A stretch of 64,000 nt of DNA from a bacterium (GTDB taxonomy: Bacteria > Electryoneota > Electryoneia > Electryoneales > Electryoneaceae): contig OY769902.1 of the NCBI GenBank assembly GCA_963669175.1, forward strand, positions 4,800,001 to 4,864,000. Reading direction: 5' to 3'. This document shows, in pieces, positions 26,820 to 50,800 of this stretch. Numbering within the stretch: position 1 is the stretch's first letter; each line of letters begins with the position of its first letter. The position numbers and the translations under genes were made by a program. The notes below the pieces were generated by a model. That model did no database searches, was not told where the DNA came from, and was given only the letters and a program-made list of their open reading frames with translations.

Positions 26820-29800
26820 TTACCGTACCAGTACAGCCTTACGGGTCATGACACTCCCGCCGTGCTGCACCTGGATGAAGTACACACCGCTGACCAGTTC
26901 CTGGCCTGCATCGAACATGTACCTGTGATACCCTGCCGTGAGATAACGGTTCTCTTCGTGAACCAGTCGGCCCAGCAGGTTGAATACGCGCACATGAACA
27001 TCACCCTCGGACGGAAGCCCGAACTGCATGTGAACCGTACTGTTGAACGGGTTCGGATACAGGCTGCCGACCATGAATTCTGTCGGTAACGCAATCGCAC
27101 GTTCCAGGGTCAGCTCAGCGAAACCACCTGAGGTAAATCGTGTCGGACCATCAATGATGTCACTGGCAATAACACCGCCGGAAGCATCCACAAGCTGCAC
27201 GGTTACCGGATTGCCGGGCTGGAATCCCGGAAGCCTCATCTTCGGCATTCCCTGCCAGATGGTAATCTTCGTGCGCCCGCCATCGCTGATATTGGCGCGT
27301 CCCACCATCAGGTCGCCGTCCAACACCTCGATAGCATCAGCGCCCATTCCGGCAAGTTCTGCATTCAGGCTTACAACCATCGTAAACGGCAGACCTGTGC
27401 GGGTAACACCTTCCGGGATACGCATCGGCTTGCGAAGTTGGGGCTTGCCTGCTGTCGCAACGGTCCAGCCACCGGAACTGAAGCTGAAGGTCACATCTTC
27501 CGACACGAAGACTTCATAGCCTTCACCGGGGAACAAGGTCACCAGGTCGCTCAGCTCTGCGTCACCCGGAATCCAGGTATAACCGTCATCGTTACGAACC
27601 AGCTCAACCACATCCATAATGGCTTCGAAGCCGGTTTCAACCGGCACGGCGAAGTCGAACGGATAACCGACCAGGTTCAGCTTGTCCGCCTGCAGGGTGT
27701 ACTCAATGGACGGGTCCATCGGGCTGCCGGTGATAGCGAACCGCGAATCGGAAGAGGTCAGCACACGGAAGCCTTCGGTCAGATCCACATCACCGATAGT
27801 ATTCACTGCCGGTGGGATCGCCATGCGGACATCGTCCTGGTAAACCAGCAACAGGTCATCAATCTCGTTGAACAGAGCCAGCGCATCGCTTTCCAGCGGT
27901 TGCAGGTAGAAGCTGATCAATTCGAAACCTTCCGATGACAACGGCAGGTTCATCTCAACCACATCACTCAGAACGACATCCATCTCCAGGATATCACCGC
28001 CAACGATCTGTACATCTTCCTGTACGAAGGTCGCGTATTCCGTATGGGTTACACGCAGGTCGTATACACCGTCAGGAACTTCGAAGAATGTGTATGCGCC
28101 TTCACTGTCCGTGTAAACCGCCCAGATGTTGTCGGTATCATCCACCAGGGACAACCGTGCGCCATCCACTGCAAGGCCACCTTCCGATGCGGTAACCATA
28201 CCGGTCAATTCCGGGATATCCGTGGTGAAGGACCAGACTTCCGAGGACCAGGTGCCATCGGTGTTGGTATCCTGCGCACGAACCTTCCACCAGTATTCAA
28301 CACCGTCCAGGATATCTTCCAGCAGGACGTTATCATCTTCAGTAGACAGTGAATCAAGGTTTTCGGTAAACAGAGCGTCAGTAGCGAACCAGACCCAGTA
28401 AATCAGTGTATCGCCCGGATCACTGTCCGTGGTGAGGTTCCACTGTACCAGCGCGTCTTCCCCGTTGAGCACCTCTGTGTCAGCCGGAGATGCCAGGCTG
28501 AAGGCTTCCGGGGTGTCGTACTGGTATACATCGAACGCCCAGCCATCCAACGGATTCGCCTGTGTCTGCAATCCGAACAGGTCGGTTGCGGTAACACGCC
28601 AGTAGACCGTGATGTCATCCGGCAATTCATCCAGTTCGCTTTCCGGACCGCCGAATAGGGCCTGTCCCAGGCCACCAACAAGTGCAAGGGCTGCTTCCGG
28701 ACCACGACTGCGTCCGGATTCCATCATCACGCCACTCTTGCCGGAAGACCGTTCCATCCGAACACGTCCGCCCAGGCTTCCCTGCGGGTGACTGGCAACC
28801 ACTGCCGCCAGTTCGTCGATGACGAAGAAGGTGTCAGAAGTGACAGCGCTGAAGGCGTCTGTAAAGGTTGGATCCAGTGACCACTCAACCGTGTATTCAA
28901 GCGTATCTGACGGATCAGGATCATCGGCACGATCCCAGTAAACTTCTGCGAATTCCTCATGTACCACAAATCCACTGTCAGGGCCGGCCAGTTCGAACGC
29001 TATCGGCGCTTCCGGGATGTAAACATCGAAGCTCCAGACATCGTCCGTCCAGGTGCCTTCCGTGTTGGTATCCTGGGCACGAACCTTCCAGTATATGGTC
29101 TGGTCGTCATCCATGCCGGTAAAGGTGTAGGTTGTATCGTTTACTTCAACAGAATCACGATCCGCGAAGTCAACATCGTTGGACCAGTACAGCCAGTAGC
29201 TGAAGCTGTCGCCAGGATCGGGATCAATCGTGGATTGCCAGACGACCGTGGTATCACCGGTACGGATAACTGCGCCGCTGTCCGGGCCAACCAGGGTGAA
29301 GGCTTCCGGCGGATCGAACAGGTAAACATCAAAGGACCAGCCAGTTTCTTCTTCCGTAGACCAGGCCTCCAGGGTGAAGCTGTCGATCGCCTTCACACGC
29401 CAGTAGATCGTGGTGTTATCCGGCAATTCATCCAGACCAACTTCACCACCTTCGATGATCGGGGACGCGTTGGAAGAACCTCCCAGTGCGTTCGAGTTGT
29501 TCTTTTCGCCCTTATCACGATCCTGATCCTGATTCACTTTGAAGGAACCGGTAGCCATAAAGGTCTCATCACTACCGTCATCCGTCGGTTTGTTGTTTCG
29601 TCCGATTCCCATCGCCATCGCTTCTTCAAGGCTGCTTACCTCGAAGAATGTGTCAGCAGTGGTTGCGCTCAGGAAATCAGTAAATGTCGCATCGCCTGAC
29701 CACTGGATCTCGTATCCGATTACATCACCGGGATCGGGATCAAGTGCGGTGTTCCAGACAACATTGATGGTATCGTTGTTGACTTCTGCGCCATCTTCCG

Positions 29801-32800
29801 GCTCAAGCAGTGCGAACGGTACTGGCGGATCCGGGATGTACACGTTCAGGGTCAGCACGTTGGAAGACCAGGTGCCTAACGTATTCGTATCCTGCGCCCG
29901 GACCTTCCACCAATAGGTGACGTCATCCATCATCCCGGTCAGATCGAACGAAGTTTCTGTTACGGTTGCCGAGTCAAGATCTGTGGTAAACGCTGCATCT
30001 GTCGCCCACCAGACCACGTAGGAAATGTCATCATCCGGGTCGGGATCAGTGGCTGCATTCCAGACCAGGGTAGTATCACCGGTCCAGACGGTTTCACCGT
30101 CAGCCGGGCCGGTCAGATCGAAAGCATTCGGCGCTTCCGGTACTTCAACGTGGAACCAGCGACCGTTTTCACCGGCATCCGCCCAGGTGGACAATCCGTA
30201 ACTGTCTTCCGCCCAGACACGCCAGTAGACGGTAGTATTATCCGGAAGTTCATCCAGCTCGTTTTCGCCTGCGCTTTCGCCCGGCGCCTGTTCGCCACCA
30301 CCACTCACTTCACCCTGGCTGATCACCTTTCCGTTCGGAATTCCGGCAAGTTCATTGCCTCCCGAAGGATTGTCACTATTAACACGTGCGCCGATTCCCA
30401 TCAGCACATCCGCCAAGTCGTGAATGATGTAAGATGTTTCAGCGGTCAGCGTATCGTACAGGGTTGCGAACGTCGGGTCGTTTGACCATTCCACGTGATA
30501 CTCGATCACGTCGGCCGGGTCGATATCCGTAGCCGCGTCCCATGCAACCGCCACGGTATCGTTTTCAACCGTGTCTTCATCAGCCGGTGTCAACAGGGCG
30601 AAGGATTCCGGTGCGATGGGTACGTAGATCGACCAGGTTTCGTTCGACCATGTACCGGTCGTGTTGGTATCCTGCGCGCGCACCTTCCAGTACCAGCTCT
30701 GGCCCTGGGTCAAGGCGCTCAACTGTGTTGTGGCTGAGGTCAGACCGGTGATCGAGTCGAGATCGGTTGCAAACGCCATGTCAGACGCATACCAGACTAC
30801 GTATTCAATTACGTCGCCCGGATCCGGATCAGTTGTCGTTTCCCAGGTCAGGTCGATATCCGCTTCCGTATGCGCCGATTCATCATCCGGGGTCAACAAG
30901 CTGAAGGCGGCCGGCGGTTCTGCGACCGCGACAAAGAAGCTGTGTCCGGTTTCACCGGCATCCGCCCAAGTGCTGTCATCTTCGGAGTCAACCGCGACGA
31001 CTCGCCAGTATACCCAGGCGTCATCGGGCAACTCATCCAGCTCATCCTCACCACCATTTTCGCCAGCCTCATCATCCGCGCCTGTCTCCATACCTTCCCC
31101 GAAGCCTTCTCCGGGATTGACACGAATCTTTCCACCGGCAACGGCGCCGTTCATGGCAATTCCGCCGGTCTCTTCATTGCCGCCGTCATCACCACCTTCA
31201 TTGCCCATGGCCATCACTTCGGTGATATCCGTAATGATATAGAAGGTATCGGTCGTCGTCGCGTTCAATAGCTCACTGAAGTCGGATTGAGCTGACCATT
31301 CCACAGTGTAAGTAACATCGTCACCATCAGGATCAACCGCCGTATGCCAGTTGACGGTAATGGTGTCGTTGTATACGGTAGCCTCGTCTGCCGGATCAAT
31401 CAGGGCAAATGCGTTTGGCGGTTCATTGGTCCAGACAGTGAAGCTCCAGGTCTGGGTTGACCATGTGCCGACCGTGTTATCATCCTGCGCCCTGACTTTC
31501 CACCAATAATCAGTTTCATCGGTCAAACCAACCAATGTTGTAGTGGTGTCGAGCAGGCCGACTATGGAATCCAGATCTGTCGTAAAGGCCTGATCCGTAG
31601 CATACCACAGAACATACTCGATAGTATCATCCGGGTCTTCATCCGTGGTTGAACGCCAGTGCAGCTCAACATCAAGCTCACGGCTCCGGTATCCACTATC
31701 AGGTAATGCCAGGTTAAATGCTAACGGTGCATTCGGGATACGCACCACGAAGGAATAGACTGAACTCGACCAGGTACCGCCCGTATTGGTATCCTGTGCC
31801 CAGACCTTCCAGTAGTAGGTGCTGTCATCCTGCAATCCGGTCAACGTGACAAAAGCATCTTCCGTATCGGTTGAATCGTAGGATTCCGCTCCGAATTCGG
31901 AATCAAAGCCCCAGTAGATCCAATAGATGACCGAATCACCCGGATCGTTTTCAACAGCAGTTTCCCACTCGAAGAGTTCGTTGGCCGTGTAAACCGTATC
32001 CTCATCTTCCGGTGTCAGCAGGTCGAAGACCAGCGGTTCATCGTAGATATAGACATCGAAGCTCCAGGTTTCTGTAGACCAGGTGCCGTTCGTATTGCTG
32101 TCCTGCGCCCAGACTTTCCAGTAGTATGTACTGTCATCATCCAGCTCATGCAGAACAAGTGTCGTATCCAGTGTGCTTACCGAATCGTAGCTTTCCGCTT
32201 CGAAGGACGGGTTCTGGCTCCAGTATACCCAGTAGGTCAGGATCTCATCGGCCGGGTCGGGATCGGTTGTGCCGTTCCAGACCAGTTGGACCGTATCCGC
32301 GTGGGTTGAATCCAGATCGGCAGGACTGACAAGGCTGAACTCTTCCGGCGATTCAAGGATGTTGACATGAAGCTGGAAGGTGCTGCTTGACCAGGTGCCC
32401 TCGGTGTTCGTATCAAACGCCCAGACCTTCCAGTAATACGTGCTGTCATCCATCAGGTCGGTCAGGGTTGCCGATGTTTCTTCAGTATCGACTGAATCCA
32501 CAGTATCCGTGCTGAACAGGGCGTCGTAGCTCCAATAGACACGGTAGATCACCGAGTCGCCCGGATCAGTTTCTACCGCGACTTCCCATTCAGCAGTTGC
32601 CGATGTCGAATACGTAGTATCTTCATCTTCCGGTGTCAGCAGGTCGAAGGCCAGCGGTTCATCGTAGATGTATACGTCGAAGTACCAGGTCTCCGTGGAC
32701 CAAGTGCCATCGGTATTGGCATCCTGCGCCAGGACTTTCCAGTAGTACCGGGTGTCGTCTACCAGATCACGGATGACACTTGAAGTGTCGTTGCCAACCG

Positions 32801-35800
32801 AAGCCTCAAACACGCCTTCGTTGAAAGTCGGATCTTCGCTCCAGTAAACTGTGTAGTTCAGTTCAACGTCAACCGGGTCGGGGTCGTAAGTACGTTCCCA
32901 GGTTACCAGAACCGTATCCACACGAACCGAATCCGTATCCAACGGACTCAACAGGCTGAACTCTTCCGGGGATTCGAGGATGTTGACATGAAGCTGGAAG
33001 ACGCTGCTTGACCAGGTGCCCTCGGTGTTCGTGTCAAACGCCCAGACCTTCCAGTAATACGTGCTGTCATCCATCAGGTCGGTCAGGGTTGCCGATGTTT
33101 CTTCGGTATCCACAGAATCCACGGTATCCGTGCTGAACAGGGCGTCGTAGCTCCAGTAAACCCGATAGATCACCGAGTCGCCCGGATCAGTTTCTACCGC
33201 GACTTCCCATTCGACATTTGCCGATGTCGAATACGTGGTATCCTCATCTTCAGGTGTCAGCAGATCGAAGGCCAGCGGTTCATCGTAGATGTATACGTCG
33301 AAGTACCAGGTCTCCGTGGACCAGGTGCCATCGGTATTGGCATCCTGCGCCAGGACTTTCCAGTAGTACCGGGTGTCGTCTACCAGATCACGGATGACAC
33401 TTGAAGTGTCGTTGCCAACCGAAGCCTCAAACACGCCTTCGTTGAAAGTCGGATCTTCGCTCCAGTAAACTGTGTAGTTCAGTTCAACGTCAACCGGGTC
33501 GGGGTCGTAAGTACGTTCCCAGGTTACCAGAACCGTATCCACACGAACCGAATCCGTATCCAACGGACTCAACAGGCTGAACTCTTCCGGGGATTCGAGG
33601 ATGTTGACATGAAGCTGGAAGACGCTGCTTGACCAGGTGCCCTCGGTGTTCGTGTCAAACGCCCAGACCTTCCAGTAATACGTGCTGTCATCCATCAGGT
33701 CGGTCAGGGTTGCCGATGTTTCTTCGGTATCCACAGAATCCACGGTATCCGTGCTGAACAGGGCGTCGTAGCTCCAGTAGACTCGATAGATCACCGAATC
33801 GCCCGGATCAGTTTCTACCGCGACTTCCCATTCGACATTTGCCGATGTCGAATACGTGGTATCCTCATCTTCAGGTGTCAGCAGATCGAAGGCCAGCGGT
33901 TCATCGTAGATATAGACATCGAAGCTCCAGGTTTCCGTAGACCAGGTGCCGTTCGTATTGCTGTCCTGCGCCCAGACTTTCCAGTAGTATGTACTGTCAT
34001 CATCCAGCTCATGCAGGACCAGCGTGGTATCCAGTGTGCTTACGGAATCGTAGCTTTCCGCTTCGAAGGACGGGTTCTGGCTCCAGTATACCCAGTAGGT
34101 CAGGATCTCATCGGCCGGGTCGGGATCGGTTGTGCCGTTCCAGACCAGTTGGACCGTATCCGCGTGGGTTGAATCCAGATCGGCAGGACTGACAAGGCTG
34201 AACTCTTCCGGCGCTTCGTAGAACTCTGTATCGAAGTACCAGACTTCTTCGCTCTTCAACGTATCACCGTTCTCGTCATAGGCTACAGCATACCAGTAAT
34301 ACCGGGTATCATCCTGCAGCATACCGGCGGGAATTGTGTAATGCTGCCCGGCCGACATGACATAGTATGGATCGTTTTCGAAGGTGGGATCATCTGACCA
34401 GAAATAACCATAGTACACATAGTCGCCAGGATCGGGATCAGTGACTGATTCAGCGCTAAGCTGCAAGTCCTGATCTGCGAGCATGACGTAGCCGCTTTCC
34501 GGTTGCGCCAGGGTAAACGGCGCGACATTACGATACCACCGTATAGTACCGTTATTCACAGACGGCACCACAAGATCCGGCGCAAAGTCACCGTCAAGGT
34601 CGCCTACCAGTACGGCATGCCCATAACCGAAGTTGGAATCACCGCTCACATGCGGCCAGGGCGCTTCCCACGGGCCTCCCTGGTTCAACCAGCCCCAAAG
34701 CATGTTACCGTCAGCGATATTGGCAACCACATCCATTTCTCTATCAAGGTCAAAGTCACCGGAACCGATACCACGCGCTGGGCCTGTAGCATCATCCAGG
34801 GTATGAGCGGTCCAGACTTGACCGCTATTCTGATACCAGGTCAGATCGTAGTTCGCTGCATCCATGCTTACGACATCAAGAAGGCCATCCCAATTGATAT
34901 CAACAGCATGCGCCGCCTGAACACCGCTAAGACCAGTCACGATATCGGTTACTGCTGCTCCGCCCTGCGCCAAGTTGGCAATGTTGAAGAAGGAGATCGC
35001 ATCATTGAAGGGTACCAGCACATCCAGCGTACCATCGTTGTCAATATCGACAACATGGAAAGCGCCATTGTTCGATACTTCGTTCAACAACGGGTAGGCA
35101 TTAAATACACCACCAGTGTTCTCGAAGAAATAAATAGTACCGCCACTTTCGCCGGTGACGATGTCCAGGTAGCCGTTGTTGTCCAGGTCACCCAGTCCGA
35201 TATAGCCCTGTCCCGAAACATCCAGTACGATAGGATGCTGAGTGAAGTTCTGCGCACCATCGTTCTCCAACCAGACAACGCCATTTCCACCGGGTGTGGC
35301 AACCAGGTCGATATCGCCGTCACCATCCATGTCGCCAGCTTTTACATCATGAGCATTCGGCACCCCTGGCGAGATTGTATGATCGGTAAAGTTGCCGAAC
35401 CCGTCGTTTTCGTACCAGTGCAAATCTGAACCGATGCGCTGGTTGACCACGACATCCAGATCGCCATCCTGATCAAGGTCTACCAGTTGTCCCTGGTCTG
35501 GCTGGGAAAGCCCTGTACCCATATCCTCGACATAAACAAAATCGGTGGTCTCACCTCGTGGCGTGTTCTGGATGTAGGTATCCAACGTCCAGACTTCGTT
35601 GGACCATGTGCCAGTTGTGATGCCATCGTTGGCCTTGACTTTCCAGTACCATGTCCTGTCATCCATCAAGTCGGCTACAGTAACGGAAGTACCCAGCGTC
35701 GAGAACGTCCTGACATTCTGGGTGAAGCCGGTATTGGTTGCCAACCACAGGGTATAGACGATGACATCTTCCGGGTCGGGATCAGTTGTTTCCGCCCAGG

Positions 35801-38800
35801 TAAAGGTTGCGCTACCCGTGTGCGATGTGTCTTCATCTGTCGGACTGAGCAGGCTGAAGGCAAGTGGCGCTTCAGGCTGACCGACAAGGAAAGACCAGGT
35901 ATCTGTTGCGAATGTTGAATCCTGCGGGTCTCGCGCAATCACGTACCAGTAGATTGTCGCATCATCCGGCAAGTCACCGGCAAAGGTGTACTGTGTCGCG
36001 GAGATACCTGACGCCATCTGAGGATCGCCGAACCGGTCGTCGTTAATCGACCAGATCACGTCATAGCTGAGTTCTTCACCCGGATCGGGATCGGTTGCTT
36101 CTTCCCAGATCAAGGTCGGACGCAAGGTTACAACCGTATCCTCATCCGCAGGTTCGATCAGTGTAAAGGAATTCGGCGGCTGATAGATGTACACGCTGAA
36201 TTCGAAGGTTTCTGACGACCAGGTACCATCCGTGTTGCTGTCCTGCGCGTGAACCTTCCAATAGTAGGTATTGTCATCTGCCAGTTCCGGTATGGTAAAT
36301 GACGTATCGTTGCCGACATTCGTTTCAAACACACCTTCTATGAAGTTCGGGTCCATCGTCCAGTAGACGGTATACGCGAGTTCCGCGTCAACCGGATCAG
36401 GATCGACTGCACGATACCAGCTCACCACAGTCGTAACATCATGAATCTCTTCACCGTTGGCCGGGCTGTTCAGGCTGAAGGCAGACGGTGGTTCGAGAAT
36501 ACTGACGTGGAACTGGAAGTCTTCTGACGACCAGGTTCCTTCCGTGTTGGTGTCCTGTGCCCAGACCTTCCAGTAGTACGTGCTGTCATCCATCAGCTCA
36601 TGTAGCACCAGGGTGGTGTCTTCAGTGCTGAGTGAATCGTAGGAATCTGCTGCGAACAAGATATCCTGACCATAATAGACCCAGTAGATCACCGAATCGC
36701 CGGGATCGACTTCAAGCGCGGTATTCCATTCAACTGTCGCGCTGTCGGTATAAACCGTAACCTCGTTGTTCGGGGTCAGCAGGCTGAACTCACCCGGTGC
36801 ATCGAAGATATAAACATCGAAGCTCCAGGTCTCAGTTGACCAGACGCCATCCGTGTTGCTGTCCTGCGCATGCACCTTCCAGTAGTAGGTCATGTCATCT
36901 TCAAGACCGCGCAACACCAGCGTAGTATCGTTTCCGACCGTGGAGTCAAACACACCTTCCACAAACGCCGGATCGAATGACCAGTAGACAGTGTAGGCAA
37001 GTGTTGTATCGGCCGGGTCGGGATCAATGGCACGGTTCCAGCTCACGGCCATGGTATCTGCATGAGTTGTGTCGGTATCAACCGGCAGGTTCAAGCTGAA
37101 GGCGGACGGCGGCTCAAGGATATTGATATGGAACTGGAATGTGCTGTCAGACCAGACACCTTCGGTATTGGTGTCCTGTGCCAAGACCTTCCAGTAGTAG
37201 GTGCTGTCATCCATCAGCTCATACAGCGCCATGGTAGTGTCTTCGGTACTGAGTGAATCGTAGGTTTCCGCTGTGAACAACGCATCCAGACCGTAGTAGA
37301 CCCAGTAGATCACCGAGTCACCGGGATCTGCCTCAAAAGCCGTGTTCCAAACAACAGTCGCGCTATCGGCGTAAACGGTATCTTCATCCGTTGGTGTCAG
37401 CAGGTTGAACGCGAACGGTTCATCATAGATATAGACGTCGAAGCTCCGTGTTTCCGAAGACCAGGTGCCGTCTGTGTTGCTGTCCTGCGCATGGACCTTC
37501 CAGTAAATCGTTGTATCATCCTTGTAGTTGCGCAAGACCAGCGTGGTATCGTTGCCAACGGTTGAATCCTGAACTCCAATTCCGAACGCGGGATCTTCAC
37601 TCCAGTAAACGGTATAGCTTAGTGTAGTATCCGCCGGGTCGGGATCAACCGCACGGTTCCAGCTTACGGCTACAGTATCGGCTCGGACGGTATCTTCATC
37701 AACCGGCAGGTTCAGGCTGAATGCCGCCGGCGGTTCAAGAATGTTGATGAAGAACTGGAAGGTCTCTGTAGACCAGGTTCCTTCCGTATTGGTATCCTGA
37801 GCCCAGACTTTCCAGTAGTAAGTACTGTCATCCATCAGCTCATGCAGCACCAGGGTAGTGTCTTCTGTACTGACTGAATCGTAGGTCTCAGCAGTAAATG
37901 CGGCATCCAATCCGTAGTACACCCAGTAGATCACCGAGTCTCCCGGATCGATTTCCAGCGCTGTATTCCATTCCACAGTCGCGCTGTCGGCATAGACAGT
38001 ATCTGTATCCGTTGGCGTCAGCAGGCTGAATTCACCCGGCACATCGTAGATGTAAACGGCGAAGCTCCAGGTTTCCGTGGATTCAGTACCCTCCGTATTG
38101 CTGTCCTGGGCCAACACTTTCCAGTAGTAGATGGAATCATCACTCAGTTCACGTATGACCAATGTTGTATCGTCGCCAACTGTGGAATCGAAGACTACTT
38201 CCGAGAAGGTGGGATCTTGGCTCCAGAACACTGTATAGCTTAGAGTCGTATCTGCCGGGTCGGGATCAATCGCACGATTCCAGCTTACTGCGACGGTATC
38301 GGCTCGAACGGTATCTTCATCAACCGGCAGGTTCAGGCTGAATGCTGCAGGCGGCTCGGAATAATCGGTTTCGAACCAGAAGACATTTTCACTGGTCAAG
38401 CCGTCAGTATTGGTATCCAACGCCTGTACATACCAGTAATATGTCTGGTCGTCAGCGAATGATCCGGTTACGAAGGAGAAAGACGTATCCGCGATGGAAT
38501 CCAGTGTGTCAGCCGTTTCGAATGTTGGATCCGTGCTGTAGATAAGCGAATAGGTTACTTCGTCGCCGGGGTCAGGATCGGTTACCGATTGCCAGGTGAA
38601 GACCCGTTCCTCATCCACGAGCATGACAGTTGCTGTATCCGGGGATATTGGTGAGAACGGTGAGGTGTTGGACCACCACATCACCTCATCACCATAGTAG
38701 TCCATTCCAACCAGATCAGGTGCATGATCTCCAGTCAGATCCACAGCCCGTATGGCGGAAGCAAGATCGAGCCCGGTAACAAACTCATGTGCCGTCCAGG

Positions 38801-41800
38801 AAGTCCCGGTTCCGTCATCATTGGAATACCAGACCATGTCGCCATCCTGCGCGCCGGATACAATAATATCCAGGTCGCCATCGACATCCAGGTCGGCCAG
38901 TTCACCATCCCAGGCCAACCCTGTATTGAGAGCGACTTCGTGTTCAACATAACTCTCGGCATTCTGATTTTCGTACCAGACAATCTTGTTTTGCGGATCA
39001 TCGATTGGCACTACGAAGTCCCGCCATCCATCTCCGTTGATATCGCCAACCATAACATCAGCAGCTCCAACCACAGCCGTCGTTACGGTATTGGATGTCA
39101 GGGCGCTGAAATCTCCGTCGGGAACTTCATACCAGGTCACACTTCCCGGGTTTCCGCCATGCTGGTAAACGATATCACGTATACCATCATTGTTGACGTC
39201 AACCAGCTCAATAGCCCCAACCAACCCCGGGCCCTGGTCATATTCGGTAAATGTTCCATCTCCATTGTTTTCAAAGACCTTGCCCCAAGACGTGTAGGCT
39301 CCTGCAACAATATCAATATCGCCATCATTGTCCAGGTCGCCGACTTCGATGTGGCTGGGTGCCGTGAAATCCGTGGACAGATCATGCCTGGTGAACGTCT
39401 GTGATCCATCATTCTCAAACCAACTCACTTCGTTAGCATTGGTCACAGCAGCAACATCCAGGTCGCCATCATCATCCAAATCGGCAATGGAAACATCATT
39501 TACGCCGCCGTATTCTGAGGCAATTACCGTTTCAGTGAAATTGTTTGATCCATCATTGTCCAGCCAGGTCAACTCAGATGCTCCATCACCGCAAACCACA
39601 AGGTCGCTGTCGCCATCCTGGTCAAGATCCACAACTTTCACATCCCTGGCGTTGGTCAGACCACTAAGGATCACACCCTCCGGTAAAAGCTCAATTTCCG
39701 GTCCCTGCGGCAAGTCCGGGATATTGACGTCAATGGACCAGGTCTCTGTTGACCAGGTTTCAGCGCCCCACTCATCTACTGCCCGGACTTTCCAGTACCA
39801 TGTCGTGTTGTCAAGCAGTCCGGACACGCTAAATGACGTATTGTCCGTTGCATACGTGAACAGGTTATCGGTGAAGGAGGCGTCCGTCGCCAGCCACAGG
39901 GTGTAGACGACATGATCACCCGGCGGCATGTCATCAACCGCTTCTTCCCAGGAGAAGGTTGTATCGGGTGTGTCAAGTGTGATCCCGTTTTCCGGGGACA
40001 GCAGTGCGAAGGCGCCCGGTGCGCTGTTGTAGTTCACCAGGAAGTGCAGTGTATCCGACCAGACACCGCCCGAATTCACGTCATGCGCCATGACAGCCCA
40101 ATAGTAATTCTGGCTGTTGGTCAGGTCGGCAAGCTTGTGGAAGGGCGAGTAGGTCAGGAAACTGTCAACATTGACTGTCAGATACGGGTCTTCCGCCGAT
40201 CTGACTACATAGTAAAGGCGATCCGTTACATCCTGATCTTCCGGCACATCCCATGTCAGCACAACAGCCATTTCTTCGACTGTAGCATCTGCTTCCGGAT
40301 AGGTCAGCAGTGGCGCTGCCGGGTAATGAGGATTCACCGGGGTTTCAATCAGGTTATCGTACCAGCGAGCCAAACCACCCGATTGTTCCATGACCAGCAC
40401 ATCCGGCATGTGATCACCGTTGAAATCAGCCCAGTCAAGCGATGCCGGGAATGAATAGAATTCTGCTATGGGTTGACGGTCAAGAGTCAGCGGCACATTC
40501 TGCATCCACAGTGTCACTTCTTCATCAGCGTTATAATCACTGCTGGTAAGCAGATCAACATCACCGTCCCAGTCAATATCTACTGCGACAATATCAGTAA
40601 CACCAGTGTAGCTCTCATCAATCAGGTAAAGGGTATAACTGAATACGCCTGTATAGTCCAACCAGGCAAGTCCATCGTCACTACCGACAACAATATCCTC
40701 ATTACCATCGTCATCGAAATCGACTATTTCAAGCGACGTCGGGTTATTCATGCTGCCGAGAACAGTATTGGACGTATACCCGGAACCTTCAACATAGGTC
40801 CAGCCGATAACATTGTCGTTCGCATTCACCACCATGACAATATCATCGTACCCATCATTATTCAGATCGGTGACTTCAACTTCCGAACCGCCGATCACAT
40901 CGGAAATGATGGTTCCAGTAACAACACCTTCTCCATCACTGACACCCAACCGCACTGTTGAAGGCCCGACAGCGACAAAGTCCAGGTCGCCATCACCCTG
41001 GTAATCGAAGACCTCGAAATCAGTTACACCTGACACTGTCAACAGTGCTATCGGCGCCCCGAAGTTGCCATCTCCTTCGTTCTCGAAGATATCCACGAAG
41101 TTGGTGTTCAGATTGAGGATATCCATATCCTCATCGCCGTCAAAGTCAACCACGATGTATTTCTTCGGATCGGCGTAATAATTTGGAAACGCTACATCCT
41201 GCGTGAAGTTGCCCATGCCGTCGTTATATTGAATCAGGAGTTGATCAGCATCGGGATCGATATAGATCAGGTCCTCGGTGCCGTTCTGATCAACATCGCC
41301 TCTTCCGATTGCATTCACCGGGCCTTCGGCGAAGAATATCTGATGACTGGTAAACGCGGCATCCAGATTCACCACAAACATGCTGGTGTCGGAAGCGATT
41401 TCGTTGTCCTGGGTGTCAGTCGCATAAACAGCCCAGTAAACCTCATCTCCATTTGCCAGATCGCCATAAGGGAATGTGTATTCCGTATCCCAGATTGGTG
41501 AAACTGTAGTAGCTTCTTCCAAGTTGGGATCGCTATATGCATAGACCAGGCTGTAGAAAACGGAATCATCCGGGTCGGTTTCAAGGACTTCTTCCCATGT
41601 GATCGTGGGTTGCAGCGTTTGAACACTGTCCGCCCAGCCCGGGTACGTCGTGGCAAAGCGTGAACTGCGATTGTACTGGTACAAACCGTTATACTGGTCG
41701 GCAGCAACAATGTCAATCCAGCCATCACCGTTGAAGTCACCGCTGATAACCGCACGACCGTTGCCCTCTGCATACGTATCCAGGGTATCCGCAGTAAAGT

Positions 41801-44800
41801 TCTGGTAGCCATCGTTTTGGTAAACGCAGATAATCCCATCGTTATATCCCGGAACGAAGACATCCTTGTCACCGTCTTCGTCGTAGTCGGCTACCCAAAC
41901 CTGCGGAATACCATTATAGTTTCCGGGCAGTGTAGACTGACTACTGAATGTTCCGCCTCCAGCATTTTCATACCAGGTAATGAAACCGGTCGCATCATTG
42001 TTTGCTGTCAGAACATCCAGATCGCCGTCAGCATCCATATCTTCTACAACGATGTCCTGGGCGAAGTTGAACGGATTCTGCAGATCATGCTGCGTCCAGA
42101 TATCGCCAGCGTCAAAGCCAGTGTTTTCCATCCAGCCGACAGCGCCGTGAGCTCCGACTGCGATATCCAGATCGCCATCATCGTCGATGTCACCGGCGTC
42201 CAGCGACAGGGGATTACTGTAGGTCGGAATGATGACAAACGTGAAGCTCGGAGGATACTGACCGTCACCAAGGCAAATGACCAGGCTGTCCCCGGTATTG
42301 GAGCCGACCGCAATATCCAACGCGCCGTCCAGGTTGAAGTCGCCAGTAGCAATTCCAGTCGCGCCAACGATCTCTTCTGTAACAGTAAGAGGTGTGTGGT
42401 TACCGGTCCCATCACCAAGGTACAGTTTGACCGTGTGATCATTCCGGCTGATAATCACAATATCTTCGACCAGGTCGTTGTTGAAATCACCAATCGCAAA
42501 TTCCGGTGGCGATGAAAGGTCCGTGTTGCCGGGAATTCCCCCATCATCCCAGAAACCGTTATTGTTGGTGAACCTTAGCGCCTTGTTAAAATCATCCAAA
42601 CCGGCAGCGCCGATGATGTCGATGTCACTGTCCTCGTCAAAGTCCATCGGCAGCATGTCGTTGTATTCGTTGTTGTCATTATCGATAACGCTCTTCGTCC
42701 AGAACATTTCCGAACCGACCGGTGGCTCATCCAGCTCAATGTCGAAGGTCCAGGTCTCGCCGGACGGTGTGATGTTGCCCTGGGTATCCATGGCACGCAC
42801 CCGCCATGAATAAGTCAGTTCATCCATCAACCCGGTAATGCGCAGACTGTCGTTGTCTGTGGTGGCCCAGTGCAGATCTGTGTTAAAGGTCGGATCGCTG
42901 GACCACTGAACGATATACACTTCCACAGAGTCGCCGACATCCGGGTCCGTAGTCAGATCCCAACTGACCACAACACTGCGTGACGCAAATTCTGACTGGT
43001 TCGCCGGGGCCGCGAGACTGAAGGGGTTGGGCGAATCAACATTCTCATAAATAAAGGAGAGGGTATCCTGCGCCCAGAGCTGATGCTGGTAGGTATTATC
43101 ACGTGCAATAACAGACCAGTAGGTGGTCTCACCTTCTTCCCAGCTATTATAGGTGTAGAAGGTGTCGGAAATTACCGTTGTCCAGACATTCGCCTGCCAG
43201 GTCGGGTCAGTTGTGTACTGGAGAACGTATTCAATCGTCTGCCCCGGATCCGGATCGGTTACTGTCTGCCAGGTCAGTTCAGTTGAATTGATGATGCTTC
43301 CATCTTCCGGTCCCAGGAGGGCAAACGGATAGGATTGTTCATACCAATAGGCGCCAAAGGCGATTTCAGATACCACGATGTCGATGTCACCGTCACCGTC
43401 AAGATCGGACCAGCGATTCGACATGCTCTGATGCCCGGACTGAACATCAATCTCCGATTGGGTAAAGGTATTTGTACCGTCGTTTGTGTAGAGATAGTAC
43501 GTGTTATCGATATACGATCCCGTCAGCAGGTCAAGATCATCATCTGCATCATAGTCCGCAGCGTCAATCATGCTTGGAGTGTCTACAGTCCCTGGCAAGG
43601 CGTAAGCTGTAAACGCAAAGTTGTCGTTGTTCTGTGCCCAGAAAACGGTACTGTTGCCGTTGTTTGCAACAAGAATATCCAGTTTACCATCATCGTTCAC
43701 ATCGGCAAGGTTCAGGCCACTGGGTGAGTTCACCGAAAGCGCTGTATGCTCTGTGAAACCAAATCCATCATACAGGTTATTCTCGGCGATGATGACATAC
43801 CCGGAACCGCCACTGCTTGTCTTCTGGATAACCAGGTCCAAGTCGCCATCCCGGTCCATGTCACCGGCAACAACCTTGTTGAAGTAGTAGTTATCCTCAC
43901 CATCCAGTATCAACTGGGAGCTGAAGGAAGGCGGATCTGTTCCATCATTTATCAACAGGACAGCGTCATTGGTACCTTCGTTTGTAACCGCGAGGTCCAT
44001 ATCGCCATCAAGGTCGAAGTCGCCTGCGATTGCACTGTTCGGCTGTGACAATCCAGCTAACAAAGGCTGACTCGTGCTGAAGTATCCTGAAGCGTCACCC
44101 CAGTAGATGTAAAGCCTGTTGTTGGATTTGTCTACAACTACAAAGTCGATATAGTCATCGGGATCGAGGTATACTGGCACTGCACCGTAGGTGGTACTAA
44201 GCGCCGTTCCATTGGGCACATCGTATTCGTTGAATACTCCACTGGCATTCTGGCGCAGCAGGTGGAAACGGTTTGCTTCATCGGTATCATGCGTTGTAGC
44301 GATATCAATATCGCCATCACCATCAACATCAACCGGTAAAGCATCCCTCAGCGATATCAACTCATCATTGAGCGTACTGCGACTCCAAACCATTTCCGGA
44401 CCACGCGGCGCATCCGGCACAGAGATATCGAAAGACCAGGTCTGGTCGGACCAGGTTTCATTCCCTTCATCATCAAACGCCAGCACCTTCCAGTACAGAG
44501 TCTGATCATCCTGCTGCCAGGGCAGAGTAAATGAGGTACCCGCCAGGATTACCGAATCCACATCAGCATCAAAGCTTGCGCTGAAGGACCAGAACAGGGC
44601 ATACAGGAAGGTCGGCGAATCGGGATCTTCCGTTTCGTTCCAACTCAGCTCAGGTGTATGAGTCGTAACCGTTGCTTCATTCGCCGGTGAAACCAGGCTG
44701 AAAGCATTGGGCGGATCGAATTCTGTCGTCGGGAAGTTTTCCCACAACTTCACAACATTGCCTGCGAATCCAAGACCGACAATATCGGCATCCATATCCA

Positions 44801-47800
44801 GGTCAAAGTCACCGGATATGATATCCGCAGCCCCGGTCAAACTTCCGATAGTCCTCATAGTAAAGCTGGGCGCCGGGTTTCCGTCATTTTCCCACCAGCG
44901 AATTTCACCGCTGCCCTGTGCCGCACCAAGAATGTCCACATCACCGTCGGCATCGAAGTCAAACGCTTTAACATCAGTCGCTTCCAGGAAACCGTTGGTA
45001 ATTGTTACACCGTTGGAGAAGTTTGGAGGTGTTGCGCCATCACTGGCCCACCACTTGATGTTGCCATCGCCATCGGAAGTAGTCAGGAGGTCGTTATAAC
45101 CATCTCCATCCACATCCGCGATGAAAACATGCTGAGTGTAGTTATTACTCGTGGTAACTGAGTGAGCACTGAAGTTGCCGCTACCATCGTTTTCGTACCA
45201 GGCAACATTGCCCCCTTCAGACTGCGCGCCTGCCAGGATATCTTTGTCACCATCACCGTCAATATCATCAATCGCCAGACTGAACGCGTTTGCCTGTGAA
45301 GCGACTAAATGGAATGTCCACGAAGGCGGACTTGCCTGGCTATGTTCATACCAGCCAACCTGGCCAGTGGTATAGGATGCAGCGACAATATCCGGATAAC
45401 TGTCCCCGTTCATGTCGACAGCACGTACTGAAAAGACATTGGGGAAGCCATCGTCAATAAAGTATTCGGTCCAGACGATTGGTGCGCCGGATCCATTCCT
45501 GAACCAGACCAGGTGATCCTGGCCAAGAGTCGAGTTGGAACAGCCTGCAACCAGGTCCGGACGACCATCTTGATCCACGTCCACGACAGACAGAGTCTGT
45601 ACCAGGTCCAGGCTGGTGGTTACATCCTGCGTTGTGAAAGAACCTGTACCATCATTGAAGTAGACACGAATCGTATTCGAACCATTCCAGGCTACCGCGA
45701 AATCAAGGTAACCATCACGGTTGAAGTCTCCCTTGACACCGTCTGATGCCATGACCAGTGAATTGTCAACGGTTGTTTCACCATTCGGGAATGTGGGACG
45801 GCCTGAATATTCAAGGTCACGAACGAAGACATACCTCAAAGATGCCGGTTCCAGCCTGCCACCATTCTGATCAACTGCCGTAACCGACCAGAACCAGGTG
45901 TTCATGTTGCTGAGGTTTTCCAGCGTAGCCGTTGTATCGTACACCAGCATGGAGTCCACGTTCAAGTCAAACGCGGCATTGGTGGCCCACTTGAGCCAGT
46001 AACCTATGTTGTCCAGTGGGTCAGGATCTGTAACCTCTTCCCATTCCAGCGTAACGGATTCGCCGTCGGACCATGATCCGACTGGCGGAGAAGTCAGCTT
46101 GAAGGTAGATGTGTTGCTGTTTACTACGAGTTCGTTCAAGCCTGCGTTAAACGTAATTACATCCTTGTAGCCGGTATCAAACAGGTCAGCAGTCGCAAAG
46201 ACACCATTGGTCTGTGTAACAGAAATACCGTAAACCTGGAAACCTGTCAACATGCCATCAAGGTTATACAAACAGTAGAGCACGTCACTTCGGTTAAAGA
46301 GCAGATCTTCGTGACCATCGCGATCAATATCAGCCGTCTCGATATCAGTATACCCTGTTCCTCCTCCAAACAAATGATGGTACGTGAAGTTCATACTACC
46401 ATCATTTTCCCACCATACCGAACCGCTGGTCGCTGGATTCACTCCGGCAATATGCCAGTTATCAGATCCATCAAGCTTGAGCATGCTGATGTCGGGAATA
46501 CTGGTTTGCGAATATTCGATCCCGTGCTCGATCATTTCATCACCAGTGCCCTCCATCCACCAGACACTCGGTTCGCCAGCGTCTGCCGTACCGTTACAGA
46601 CAATATCCAGGTAACCGTCCTGATCAAAGTCCAACACCTCGATATTGTCCACCGGCCAATCGGCGTGTATAAACTGGACGTTATCGCCGATGAAGAACAG
46701 GGAATCGTCGGTGCAACCCAGTACTAACTGAATACTACTGTTTCCCAGGAAATAGCCGACTTCAAAATCCGTAATCGGTCCGGGAACTTCTCCAACCGGA
46801 ACGCCGGTAAATGAACCTGCTCCATCGTTAACATAGGCGATGAGGTAGGGGAATGTATCCCTGCCAATCAAAATGTCGTCGATTCCATCTCCACTGATAT
46901 CACCAAGTTTTACAACGGTTGCGCTGGCCTCGGTGTCATCAATGAGATGATACGTCCATGTCTCTGAATCACTGTCATATTCGTACCAGCCAATCGTACT
47001 GTTTGTATACGAAACGGCAATCATATCCACATCGCCGTCAAAGTCTACATCCTCTGGCAACAGGTCTGAGGCAGCATTGAAGGCGCCCATGATACTGGAT
47101 GCAAATTCGGTTGTCCGTCCTCGCGGATCATTCGGCATGTTGATGGAGAAGCTCTCTTCGCTGTTAGCTTCCATTTCCAGGCCGCTTTCCGCGATAGCGG
47201 TAACATTCCAGTAGTAAAGGCTGTCGTCTTCCAGCCCCGCAAGGTAGAATGAGTCTGCCGGAGTATAGGCAACCTGCCAGGGATCGTACTCGTCACCCGT
47301 AGTCCACTGCACCTTGTAAGTGATGCCGCCAAAGCCCTGTGGGTCCATAGAACTCTGCCAGCGCAGCCAGGTTGAGGATTCCTGAATAACTGAGCCCGCC
47401 AATGGGTAGGTCAGGTCAAACCCGGTGGGCAGGAAATCGCTGGCATCGTTCTCCCACATACTCAGCTTGTTTTCAGACTTCGCTACCGCAAGAAAATCAA
47501 GATCAAGGTCGTTGTCGATATCGGCAAGGAGAACATCTTCCGGCCCACTATCAAATGCAGTATAGACAATACGTGTGAATTCCATATTGCCGTTGTTCCG
47601 GAATTCCATCACGAGATTATCCAGATTAGCACCGGCAAACAGGTCGATGTCACCGTCAAGGTCCGTATCGCCACCATAGACAACGCTGGCGCCGTTCAAT
47701 TGATCTTCGACCAGGTGGTATGTGAAGCTCTCTGATCCATCATTCTCGAACCAGGCGAGAACATCACTCACGAACGCAACAACGGCAAAGTCGACATCAC

Positions 47801-50800
47801 CGTCACCATCCATATCACCAGGCCAGATGCGAGACGGCCTGTTCAGAGAATGAGTAATGGCATGCGTGGTAAAGCTGCCTGAACCGTCGTTTTCATACCA
47901 GTTCAGATCATTGTTTGTTTCTCCTGTCGCCAGGATGTCCACATCGCCATCGTCATCCATGTCGACCGGTTCCAGAGAAGTCGCCCCTTCAAGTCCGGCA
48001 TCAATTGTCAATGTTGTCCAGGATGAGCCATTGCCATCATTACGGAACCAGATCAATTCTCCATCCGTGGCCTGGTTGGGAGATCCATTGATCGTCGCCG
48101 CCACGTCAATATCACCATCACCGTCAAAGTCAGCGCCTCGCGCATCTGTTGGCGAATTCAGAGTGCTGTTGATGGAATGGAAGGAGAAGGTTCCACCCTG
48201 GTTTTCCAGCCAGGCGACGGAACCGGCCGCGTTGGGCGCTCTGCCAACGAACAGGATATCATCGTAGGTATCGCCGTTGAGATCACTGACACAAACGTCA
48301 TTTTCAGAGCTTGTCAGGTTGTACAGAAGCTCCTGGCTGCCGAAATAGCCACCGTCGTTTTCGTACCAGACAACGCCATTGCTGGCGCCAGTCGCAACAA
48401 TATCAATGTCGCCGTCATGATCGACATCGCCTGTGCTGACTGCCGTGCCATAGTGCAAGTCCGCATCCACAACTGTCAGCGGATCATTCACGACACCATT
48501 AAGATTGAGGTATAAGCTGTGGGAAGTTTCCGATTCAATACCAAGTCCACTCGGATCATATGCTCTTACTTTCCAGTACCAGAAATTCCGGTCAGCGAGA
48601 TCGATCAGGACGCTCGAGGTATTGGTCAATCCTTCAGTAGAATCCACATTGGAGCTGAACGTGGGCGAGGTGGACCAGATCAGGGTATAGGTTACATCAT
48701 CACCATCCGGATCAATAGAAGCATCCCATGAGCAGGCGATACTGGTCATATCAGTGAGATACTCATCAGCAGGTGAAATTAGCGCAAAGGTAGCAGGCGC
48801 TGTATTGCTGATACCGCCCTGCAAGAACCAGTAGACACCGGCAGTTGTGGTTACCAGCATGTCATCATCACCATCGGCGTCTGCGTCAATTATCTGGATT
48901 TCCGTACAGTTTTCCCCACTCAGCAGGGGATGCCAGGTCATAACGCTGCCATCAATGTTTTCATACCACCCGGCCACCGCTTCATTCCAACTTCCGGCCG
49001 CGATATCAGTATCGCCATCTCCGTCAAAATCGCCGACATTTACACAAGAATAGGAACCACTGCTGAGTTGATGAGAATTGTAGAATGACAACCCGCCATC
49101 ATTTTCGAACCAGATCACCTGGCTACCATTGTAATCCGGGAAACTGCCTTCGCATGCAACCACGATATCTTTATAGGTATCCAAGTTGAAGTCTGCAACT
49201 GCAACGCTGTGTGGCGCTATCAACGTGGCAATATCCGTATAACCAAAGGTTTCGGCATCGTCATTCTGGAACCAGCCGAGGGTATTTCCAACATAATCCG
49301 GCACGATGATATCTACACCACCCGCGCCATCAAAATCGATCGCTTCGCAATCCCAGGGACCGCTCACATCCCCCGCGTTGCCAACCATGTATTCGGTGAA
49401 GTTTGGCGGTGTTGAGCCATCGTTTTCATACCAGTACACACCACTGGCAGTCTCAAAGGCCGCAATAATATCCAGGTCGCTGTCTTCATCCACATCCCTG
49501 ACTTCGACCCACTGACCGCTCGCGTGCGCACCTAACTCATGGAAAGTGAATGTGCCTGGTGCAGTCTGTTCATACCAACCAACATTTTCGGCAGAGAAGG
49601 AGATAACAGCTACATCGCCATCGCCATCGCCGTCAATGTCATCCACCCAGACGTTTTCGCCAAAGTAAGCATCGATGGTGTGTTCAGTGAAGTTGAAAGC
49701 GCCGTCATTCTCGTACCATGACAGGGAATGTGAGCTTTCCGAGATAACAACAGCATCCATATCGCCATCGCCATCCATATCGAATGGACTGGCGCCGGAA
49801 TGAGTCCCCGGGGTTTCCATAACCAAATACTCATCCAGCAGGACACCCTGGCCAAATTCAGTAGTGAAGGAACGTGCTTCAGATTCCGTCCAGTAGCCCT
49901 GCTCATCGACCGCACGTACTTTCCAGTAGTATGTGGTGAAGTCTTCCAGCGCATAGAGTGGATACTGAAGCTGATCAAGTTGATCAGCATACCCCACGCC
50001 AGTCGTGAATCCTGCATCTAACGCCCAGATCACGGTATAATCAACAGCCTGTCCCTGCGGGTCGATTGATTCTCCCCACTGAAGCGTGACAACGTCATAC
50101 CCGAATGTTTCACCGTTGGTGGGATAGACAAGTGCAGGTACACCAGGCGCCTGTTCCGGAGGTTCGGGGAAGTCATTCAGATAAAGCCTGATGGAATCCG
50201 TTTCCGTACCCACAAGGATATCCAGTGACCCATCATCATCCCAGTCAACCAGGTCCAGCGCAACCGGCGATCCAATCGAACCAAGAGACTCCCTGGTCCA
50301 ACTTAATCCGGTACCATCATTTAAATAGACCGCGACTTCATCAATATCATAGCCTGTGGCAACGATATCGAGATAGGCATCATCGTTAATCAAACCGGTA
50401 CGTACACGCTTGCCGCGCATTCCGGTATCGACCAAAACCGGAATCCAGGATTCATTTCTGTGCATGTAAACAACAAGGCCGGTTCCCGGGGTTGTGGAAA
50501 TCGCAGCCGCATCTGTCACGCCATCCTGGTCGAAATCGCCACCGGCAATATCGTATCCATTGACAAAAGTATCGCAAATGGTTTCAACGGTGAATCCGCC
50601 GGGCTCGTATTGTTCGTAGTATTTCAGGACATTTGATTCATCATAGCCGGACGTTACGACTTCCAGAAGACCGCTCAGGTTCCAGTCGCCGATATCCATC
50701 CCGTAAGCATCGCTTTCACCGATATCTGTCTGGGTCAATCCACCTTCGCCATCAGGTGAAAGTTGTGTAAGTGCACCCTCCAGTGTGGCAACGATATCCA

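Follow-up and report, generated by a model that had tools for sequence, protein, structure and literature searches.

The ELDE tetrapeptide, a candidate lineage-specific signal of type IX secretion cargo displayed in loops of fibronectin type III-like modules

Introduction

Two sequence signals are known in type IX secretion system (T9SS) cargo, a Sec signal peptide and a C-terminal sorting domain (CTD). Motif-directed processing of proproteins is established elsewhere, at the dibasic sites of furin and kexin and in the Glu-specific V8 step of the staphylococcal protease cascade. In the insulin and insulin-like growth factor 1 (IGF-1) receptors, domain FnIII-2 carries a long disordered insert in its C-C' loop, which furin cleaves at a dibasic site while the parts stay together. 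Here we describe a tetrapeptide, ELDE, in the T9SS cargo of an Electryoneaceae bacterium. The window, a stretch of 64,000 nucleotides (contig OY769902.1 of assembly GCA_963669175.1, positions 4,800,001 to 4,864,000), encodes a giant T9SS protein in which four long loops of fibronectin type III (FN3)-like modules end in ELDE or GLDE.

The closest described systems are the gingipain/adhesin polyproteins of Porphyromonas gingivalis (RgpA, Kgp, and HagA) and RgpB. According to the part of a 2023 T9SS review considered here (PMC10202324), T9SS cargo folds in the periplasm and proteases fold as zymogens with N-terminal prodomains; PorU is reported there to take part in prodomain removal, at a site not determined, and that removal is described without a sequence rule. 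The system described here is like the gingipains in its zymogen- and polyprotein-like cargo, in a PorU equivalog encoded in the genome (NF033707, 688 bits against a cut-off of 420; open reading frame [ORF] at genome 1039231-1043154, + strand), and in the position of the motif, which coincides in alignment with the mature N terminus of RgpB. It differs in that gingipains cut after Arg or Lys (same part of PMC10202324), whereas ELDE is acidic, and in that most C25 peptidase paralogues lack the aligned catalytic His. Furin, kexin, and V8 are comparable in kind only: a short motif lies at pro/mature and inter-domain junctions of unrelated secreted proteins, but motif, organism, and secretion route differ.

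Metagenome-assembled genomes (MAGs) of Ca. Electryoneota have been described as protease-rich, with many proteases of the subtilisin family, in the part of the source considered (PMC9324843); by the words searched, that part does not mention T9SS, gingipains, or an ELDE motif. Full-text literature searching returned no paper on LDELPD or an ELDE motif.

Results and Discussion

ELDE is over-represented in T9SS cargo

The reading that we prefer, with a probability of roughly 0.5, is that ELDE is a lineage-specific cargo signal that would most likely be read by an endopeptidase and is displayed in the loops of one class of FN3-like module, called B type below. An iterated sorting-domain profile found 334 CTD-bearing ORFs in the 5.45-Mb genome, 13 of them at least 2,000 amino acids (aa) long. 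When the sorting domain was searched for independently in the genome, 150 of 340 candidates were scored, and all were above the cut-off. This cargo set is unusually large for a genome of 5.45 Mb.

Motifs were counted directly in 325 non-overlapping CTD ORFs (333,652 aa). ELDE was observed 158 times against 8.0 expected, and ELDE[LFIVM] 90 times against 2.2. The permuted controls EDLE, ELED, DELE, and LEDE were observed 6 to 16 times each against the same 8.0 expected (0.75- to 2-fold). The other 2,968 ORFs contained 60 copies of ELDE, with 35 expected (1.7-fold). ELDE thus exceeds both the expectation from composition and the permuted controls and does so in unrelated contexts (see below), with the excess restricted to the cargo set. 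A reading of the window made earlier without database searches (the sequence-only reading) had predicted that LD[ED] would be enriched at linker ends in the secretome, and these counts bear the prediction out. When tetrapeptides shared by 30 or more CTD ORFs are ordered by enrichment, ELDE comes 14th. To judge from the CTD of the giant protein, the 13 ranked above it (PNPF, NPFN, YPNP, GVYF, and others) look like pieces of the sorting domain. Outside the sorting domain, no tetrapeptide is thus more strongly over-represented than ELDE in the T9SS cargo of this genome. A repeat at the DNA level was rejected as the source of the motif, because the sites use 27 different codon 12-mers; selection therefore acts on the protein.

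At least one ELDE site is present in 86 of the 325 CTD ORFs, about a quarter. Thirty-one sites lie in B modules and 127 elsewhere, across 80 ORFs. The preferred neighbors of the motif are D, N, G, or S on its N-terminal side and L, F, Y, or I on its C-terminal side. More than half of the sites outside B modules (68 of 127) are located within the N-terminal fifth of the protein, most frequently at aa 50-100; the 60 sites of non-CTD ORFs show no such peak. Order-promoting residues are less frequent in the 30 residues upstream of the 127 sites than downstream (0.317 versus 0.383; Wilcoxon p=6e-9). Low-order segments were also searched for directly. A first, crude disorder filter gave just 2 segments, and a relaxed version was used instead; with it, 11 of 38 segments in CTD ORFs ended in LD[ED] against 1.3 expected, 3 of them not in B modules, a result to be taken as a pointer only, since the giant protein's fourth loop escaped this filter.

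ELDE precedes unrelated domains and lies at predicted pro/mature junctions

We clustered 153 sites (tandem ELDELDE merged) by the similarity of the 90 residues downstream and obtained 41 clusters, 17 of them with at least 2 members. B modules account for 27 sites, a family with the context RGPxxxxxx-ELDE-(L/R)(W/F)D for 15, the junction of C25 peptidases for 15, a NIDO-like domain starting GGPDxxGY for 11, S8 peptidases for 4, and C1-like peptidases for 3. MAM-like N termini are among the other contexts.

The peptidases allow the position of the motif to be compared with that of a mature enzyme. The mature N terminus of subtilisin precedes the Pfam model by about 25 residues. In four S8 ORFs, ELDE lies at aa 121, 193, 173, and 195 and the Pfam domain starts at aa 152, 216, 196, and 218, respectively, so that the motif is 22 to 31 aa ahead, as expected for a mature N terminus. 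In two C1 ORFs, ELDE is found at aa 73 and at aa 104/107, and position 1 of the model extrapolates to about aa 71 and 108. One C10 ORF has ELDE at aa 177, 16 aa ahead of the domain start at aa 193. Among the C25 paralogues, [ED]LD[ED] lies 8 to 16 aa ahead of position 1 of PF01364 in 18 of 23; it, rather than Arg or Lys, marks the prodomain junction. A phmmer comparison with gingipain R (1cvr, 4ief) paired residue 6 of the mature chain with residue 228 of a C25 paralogue. By manual residue counting, the mature N terminus of RgpB then maps to residue 223 of the paralogue, the first E of ELDE. ELDE would thus sit at the predicted pro/mature junctions of S8, C1, C10, and C25 peptidases, a placement that argues for proteolytic processing.

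This placement also bears on a quite improbable alternative, that ELDE is recognized without being cut: a chaperone, a receptor or anchor at the surface, or a T9SS enzyme that modifies the cargo would bind many copies presented on flexible loops. Enrichment, lineage specificity, and display in loops would be the same as under our reading. Arrays reach 16 B modules per protein, and cutting a protein into so many pieces seems wasteful. However, exact placement at the pro/mature junctions of four families is what a cleavage site predicts and a binding site does not, and no candidate binding partner turned up.

Several paralogous cargo proteins of 2,100 to 2,900 aa carry three to five ELDE or ELDD sites at matching positions; examples are the ORFs at genome positions 446625-453617, 3030041-3038767, 2918434-2924742, 3871114-3878064, and 4746438-4754306. 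At one site of these proteins the motif extends upstream to (R/G)GP(V/I)x5-6-ELDE-(L/R)(W/F)D, and their layout resembles that of polyproteins.

The motif is specific to the lineage

In an alignment of S8 peptidases from 30 loci, the ELDE junction, preceded by a variable, gapped linker, was kept in 10 of 12 loci of other genomes of the same family. Of the more distant families, one keeps xDEIA; the most distant have L-D or nothing. The NIDO-like domain was compared in a wide database. Among 101 homologues with the GGPDxxGY start, ELDE stood ahead of the domain in 3, all from this genome. Four proteins (P0018, P0040, P0078, and P0100, two of them named Ca. Electryonea clarkiae) had (D/G)ELDR there, and about 92 had unrelated sequence. 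In 113 foreign NIDO-like proteins, ELDE occurred 4 times in 130,033 aa, similar to the permuted controls. Since the domain lacks ELDE in other lineages, it does not need the motif; the need for it would lie with something in this lineage.

Pattern counts in whole-genome DNA gave 269 matches against 47 for a control in the own genome and 289 against 43 and 167 against 36 in two others (G003 and G009). These counts point to an excess in several genera of the family and to little elsewhere; their control is crude, the pattern also matches E-F-D-E, and reading frames were pooled. On the evidence of these comparisons, the ELDE motif is specific to this lineage.

Four loops of the giant protein are expanded B-module loops

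The giant protein (11,593 aa; coordinates in Table 1, where, as throughout for positions not otherwise labeled, numbers refer to the window) carries a C-terminal Por_Secre_tail above curated cut-offs (TIGR04183, 38.8 bits against 23; PF18962, 35.8 against 27), which confirms its earlier assignment to T9SS. Its last 2060 aa match FN3 (PF00041, E=1.6e-22), and nine FN3-like modules lie between aa 9959 and 11133. Modules 1, 3, 5, 7, and 9 (A type) are 101 to 103 aa long, end in ..LxxLxDDxxY(Y/W)WKVRAQD, and have no loop extension. Modules 2, 4, 6, and 8 (B type) are 160 to 172 aa long and end in ..(E/G)LDELPD(D/N)xx(V/I)YWRV. The additional residues form one long loop per module, between strand E (FYIITDI, SYIIHDL, FFEVSSL, FFVIDEL) and LPD..(V/I)YWRV, and the loops end in EDELDE, ENELDE, EVGLDE, and ESELDE (modules 2, 4, 6, and 8). 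LDELPD occurs in the giant protein in exactly four copies, solely at these four loop ends.

Table 1. Features of the giant T9SS protein, with positions in the 64,000-nt window
Feature	Positions	Strand	Details
Giant ORF, T9SS cargo	26820..61601	-	ORF list and translation; 11,593 aa
T9SS type A C-terminal sorting domain	26832..27062	-	PF18962 and TIGR04183; residues 1981-2057 of the last 2060 aa
CarboxypepD_reg-like domain after the module array	27969..28208	-	PF13620, E=2.5e-12; residues 1599-1678 of the last 2060 aa
A-type module M9	28203..28511	-	
B-type module M8i	28512..29006	-	aa 10866-11030
M8i motif	28617..28637	-	ELDELPD (ELNELPD in same-genus orthologue)
M8i loop	28638..28808	-	57 aa, net charge +2
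A-type module M7	29007..29312	-	
B-type module M6i	29313..29828	-	aa 10592-10763
M6i motif	29418..29438	-	GLDELPD
M6i loop	29439..29627	-	63 aa, net charge -6
A-type module M5	29829..30131	-	
B-type module M4i	30132..30611	-	aa 10331-10490; AlphaFold2 mean pLDDT 80.2
M4i motif	30240..30260	-	ELDELPD
M4i loop	30261..30413	-	51 aa, net charge -5
A-type module M3	30612..30917	-	
B-type module M2i	30918..31421	-	aa 10061-10228; long E-F loop
M2i motif	31023..31043	-	ELDELPD
M2i loop	31044..31223	-	60 aa, net charge -13, 30% Gly
A-type module M1	31422..31727	-	YWWKV type
Further ELDE site, module end	42726..42737	-	..WTFDI ELDE PPVG..
Further ELDE site, between modules	59313..59324	-	..WGF ELDE PLVF..

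The sequence-only reading had described inserts at one common position in every second module, with (E/G)LDE endings and insert-free modules between them, and all of this was recovered. It had also called the inserts mutually dissimilar. This holds for overall identity, which is 0.14 to 0.28 between the loops and 0.39 to 0.55 between the module cores; it does not hold for their beginnings, which read D(I/L)xx(V/A)(M/L/V)..G in all four loops, or for a weak G(K/S)..V island near the center that they also share. Because the four modules are paralogues in a repeated two-module unit, the agreement of their endings does not amount to four independent events.

The genome contains 27 copies of LDELPD in 9 large ORFs, many of them about 6 residues after ..ITDL. 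A profile built from the 27 motif-bearing modules found 393 FN3-like modules in the genome, and those scoring at least 10 bits better with this B profile than with a profile of plain modules were called B type. There are 59 of them in 15 ORFs. The shortest B extension is about 10 residues (..ITDL-ADMVQDLDEL-PDD..). The B module is an A module with an extended E-F loop, and the four inserts are B-module loops grown to 51 to 63 disordered residues, which diverge quickly while flanks and ELDE ending are kept. All four derive from a single ancestral loop that expanded within a duplicated A-B unit. Their shared ending is inherited and defines the B module, which explains the four matching loop ends without four independent coincidences.

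LD[ED] is about as frequent in B modules with a short loop (28 of 39) as in those with a long one (17 of 20; Fisher p=0.34). The earlier view of the motif as a property of the inserts did not survive this comparison. We likewise rejected the possibility that ELDE marks the ends of long inserts only, as short-loop modules carry it both in the genome and in the wide family. Modules with a loop value of n>=14 were also collected irrespective of the motif; 25 of these have n>=21, most with ELDE-like endings and a few with others (PSDHLPD, DLTPIQD, ELDVV). Among the 20 long-loop B-type paralogues, 3 have ELNE variants.

Long-loop B modules lie nearer the C terminus than short-loop ones (mean relative position 0.77 versus 0.52; Spearman rho 0.48, 15 ORFs), a trend whose p-value overstates the effect because paralogues are not independent. 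They cluster in the last fifth of the protein, which is the cell-proximal part if the CTD end is anchored. Two long-loop B modules, with about 56 and 89 extra residues, also lie close to the C terminus of a second giant ORF (genome 4378116-4409186, - strand; 10,357 aa).

Module and motif are kept in relatives

The module family was found in 40 of the 41 related genomes searched. Other genera of the same family have (E/G)(L/I)DELPDD after loops with few to about 60 extra residues, and in more distant genomes long-loop modules end in RRDELPDD, QLVLPDD, DPDSLPDD, or MTVPLPDD. Named matches in the genome collection were Ca. Electryonea clarkiae MAGs (FCB group); this search used the motif as its pattern, and its matches are biased toward the motif.

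An orthologue of the giant protein in the same genus (locus L074, contig 43) shares 68% identity over 1800 aa with it. None of the four long loops is missing there, and their lengths are 67, 50, 61, and 57 aa compared with 60, 51, 63, and 57 aa. Identity between the two proteins is 31 to 50% in the loops and 62 to 77% in the cores. The motifs of the orthologue read, in order, ELDELPD, ELDELPD, GLDELPD, and ELNELPD. The islands AGG(K/R)IRVNP, ATGSF, and VGGLGxALFGG are conserved in the loops of both species, and the disordered loops may thus hold short functional elements of their own.

A search of a 1.84-billion-protein library with the minimal module returned 840 representatives at E<=1e-3. 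In the best 150 of these 840, ELDE was observed 60 times against 5.3 expected, and 23 of 49 long loops had LD[ED], as did 20 of 55 short ones. Their 133 B-type anchors have Leu before Pro in 118 cases, Asp in 87, Leu/Ile in 82, and Glu in 62 and 45. The motif is thus conserved in homologues, as the sequence-only reading had expected, in the orthologue, in other genera, and among the library matches.

The motif is predicted to lie at the end of a disordered loop in an FN3 fold

Module 4 (165 residues) was modeled with AlphaFold2 from a 60-sequence alignment. The model has the complete FN3 strand order, a mean predicted local distance difference test (pLDDT) score of 80.2, and pLDDT >=90 for 91 of the 165 residues. 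Blocks of 10 residues over residues 71-120 have mean values of 44 to 61. Strand E lies at YIIH and is followed by a short helix, and strand F begins directly after LPDN. The module is thus predicted to be an intact FN3 sandwich with a low-confidence, probably disordered loop, as had been foreseen. FN3 is a seven-strand beta sandwich with a conserved Leu/Tyr-corner region ahead of strand F. B modules are like FN3 in the Pfam match, in the predicted strand order, and in their top Foldseek matches in the PDB (FN3 domains of DCC and neogenin, E ~4e-4); they differ in an E-F loop extended by 10 to >100 residues and ending in ELDEL. IGF-1 receptor ectodomain chains were among the Foldseek matches of module 4, at the level of the FN3 fold only and with no homology beyond it. 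The insulin/IGF-1 receptor insert differs from the B-module loop in lying in another loop, in being eukaryotic, and in its dibasic site.

A minimal, short-loop B module taken from a different protein of this genome was modeled with a mean pLDDT of 91.4. The model shows no regular secondary structure in the 16-residue E-F loop, TDLADMVQDLDELPDD, and the mean over residues 71-80 (DMVQDLDELP) is 69. By these models, the motif closes a loop extension instead of forming a core strand. MAFFT aligned the PDD..YW segment of B modules with xDD..YYW of A modules and paired LDELPDD with LxxLxDD, which raised the possibility that ELDE is an FN3 core strand. This possibility was rejected, because AlphaFold2 places strand E earlier (YIIH / TLDI); by the models, the pairing is an arbitrary gap placement.

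A purely structural role of the motif is the alternative that we consider unlikely but take most seriously. ELDEL(P)DD would cap the E-F loop of the B module, through calcium or by packing on the DPDPGD loop of the next module, and nothing would be cut; ELDE sites elsewhere would be convergent "domain start" caps favored by an acidic exoproteome. The E-F loop of FN3 lies at the C-terminal pole of the domain and adjoins the next module, in line with such a role. So are the equal frequency of the motif in short loops, the conservation of Leu before Pro and of Asp above all other positions in the wide family, the persistence of L-D at the S8 mature N terminus in distant families, and the Asp-to-Asn exchange in the orthologue, which is conservative for hydrogen bonding. 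In contrast, even in the minimal module AlphaFold2 is only moderately confident of the motif and assigns it no regular structure, and the same tetrapeptide stands ahead of at least 17 unrelated recurrent contexts. Moreover, the NIDO-like domain does without it in other lineages, and permuted acidic tetrapeptides show no enrichment.

Candidate enzymes and the caspase-like alternative

The sequence-only reading had proposed a caspase-like processing code. A clan CD enzyme would cut xELD|E and nick the stalk, and the FN3 halves would be held by strand complementation. The search that it called for returned 23 C25 and two C14 matches and no C11 peptidase; C13 peptidases were not found in the genome either.

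Of the 23 C25 matches, 22 lie in CTD ORFs and one is PorU. The C25 genes form a tandem cluster of six at genome 651068-681679 and lie at 16 other places. In a MAFFT alignment of 22 of the 23 paralogues, catalytic columns were mapped by manual counting through the RgpB alignment. The catalytic Cys is kept in 20 of the 22 aligned paralogues. The catalytic His (gingipain His211 column) is kept in two, PorU and the ORF at genome 3259802-3263749; the other 20 have Y, F, W, L, or V there (motif xRG[YF]). Judged by these columns, the His-less paralogues may be pseudo-peptidases or a divergent subfamily. The C25 paralogues as an Asp- or Glu-directed enzyme are weakened as a candidate by the same 20 of 22. 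The specificity residue Asp163 of RgpB aligns (manual counting) to a stretch absent from the C25 paralogue, which has no bearing either way. The gene directly upstream of PorU encodes a 5,179-aa protein that contains 16 B modules (genome 1023376-1038912, + strand).

The two C14 homologues (genome 543910-545919 and 2647347-2650697) have signal-peptide-like N termini and apparent GHG and DAC motifs, and neither belongs to the CTD set. The latter (- strand, 1,117 aa) lies directly upstream of a 5,250-aa B-module T9SS giant (genome 2631072-2646821, - strand); its caspase-like domain is C-terminal, and its N-terminal part appears by eye to consist of WD40-like repeats.

These homologues, the one next to a B-module giant included, and the C25 matches in CTD ORFs provide the caspase-like reading with candidate enzymes. 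The Glu two residues before Asp matches the xExD caspase pattern cited in the sequence-only reading, and the residue after Asp varies between E and R before the NIDO-like domain of relatives, as a P1' residue might. Nonetheless, we regard the caspase-like reading as very unlikely. According to the part of the source considered (PMC5756287), all C14 enzymes characterized so far outside animal caspases cut after Arg or Lys. Both C14 ORFs fall outside the CTD set, most C25 paralogues lack the His, and the C11 and C13 families are absent from the search results. The proposed P1 Asp is not invariant: ELNE stands at one orthologous site (ELNELPDD) and in 3 of 20 long-loop paralogues, and Asp is present in 87 of 133 anchors. 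On these grounds, the proposed code has little support.

Weighing the preferred reading

If ELDE is a lineage-specific signal as we propose, a trans-acting factor of the secretion pathway would read it as a short linear signal. That factor would most likely be an endopeptidase that strips pro-segments and separates or nicks modules after export, and B-type modules would be FN3 modules that show the signal in a loop. The scissile bond could be ELD|E, ELDE|x, or a subtilisin-like LDE(L/F)|x.

Several points weigh against this reading. No single candidate enzyme stood out from the survey of C14, C25, C11, and C13 peptidases in the genome. In the C25 paralogues, the segment before ELDE (LPxYRxxLDW..) is also conserved, and there is no disordered linker end. 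The L-D that persists in S8 peptidases of distant families may serve the mature N terminus structurally or by binding calcium. Leu next to Pro (118 of 133) and Asp (87 of 133), the best-kept positions of wide-family B modules, fit a structural role, and one of the four orthologous sites has Asn in place of Asp (ELNE). Paralogy inflates the raw ELDE counts, for which the 41 contexts are the fairer figure, and some of the 24 singleton contexts are noise, about 8 sites being expected by chance. Because the B profile grew from modules chosen for the motif, the definition of the class favors the motif. Our CTD set and our measure of order are both self-made and crude.

A more specific form of the preferred reading is an own T9SS maturation code. 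One endopeptidase for (D/N/G/S)-E-L-D-E-(L/F/Y/I) would trim S8-, C1-, C10-, and C25-like enzymes, cut module borders, and nick B-module loops. We advance it tentatively, as conceivable rather than probable. If it is true, the cell-proximal stalk would be a chain of non-covalently held pieces that could be shed or remodeled. An internal motif such as ELDE, which about one in four T9SS cargo proteins of this organism contain and which lies at predicted pro-enzyme junctions and in loops of giant adhesin-like proteins, would amount to a third T9SS signal and would provide a handle on surface maturation and organization in an uncultured, protease-rich lineage.

Tandem repeats upstream of the module array

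The region ahead of the nine modules, at aa ~9205-9930 of the giant protein (window ~32400-34700, - strand), contains runs of two-module units with identical 55-aa contexts. One such context occurs three times (YWKV sites at aa 9308, 9515, and 9722), a second set at aa 9412 and 9619, and a third at aa 9205 and 9826. These repeats are recent intragenic tandem duplications.

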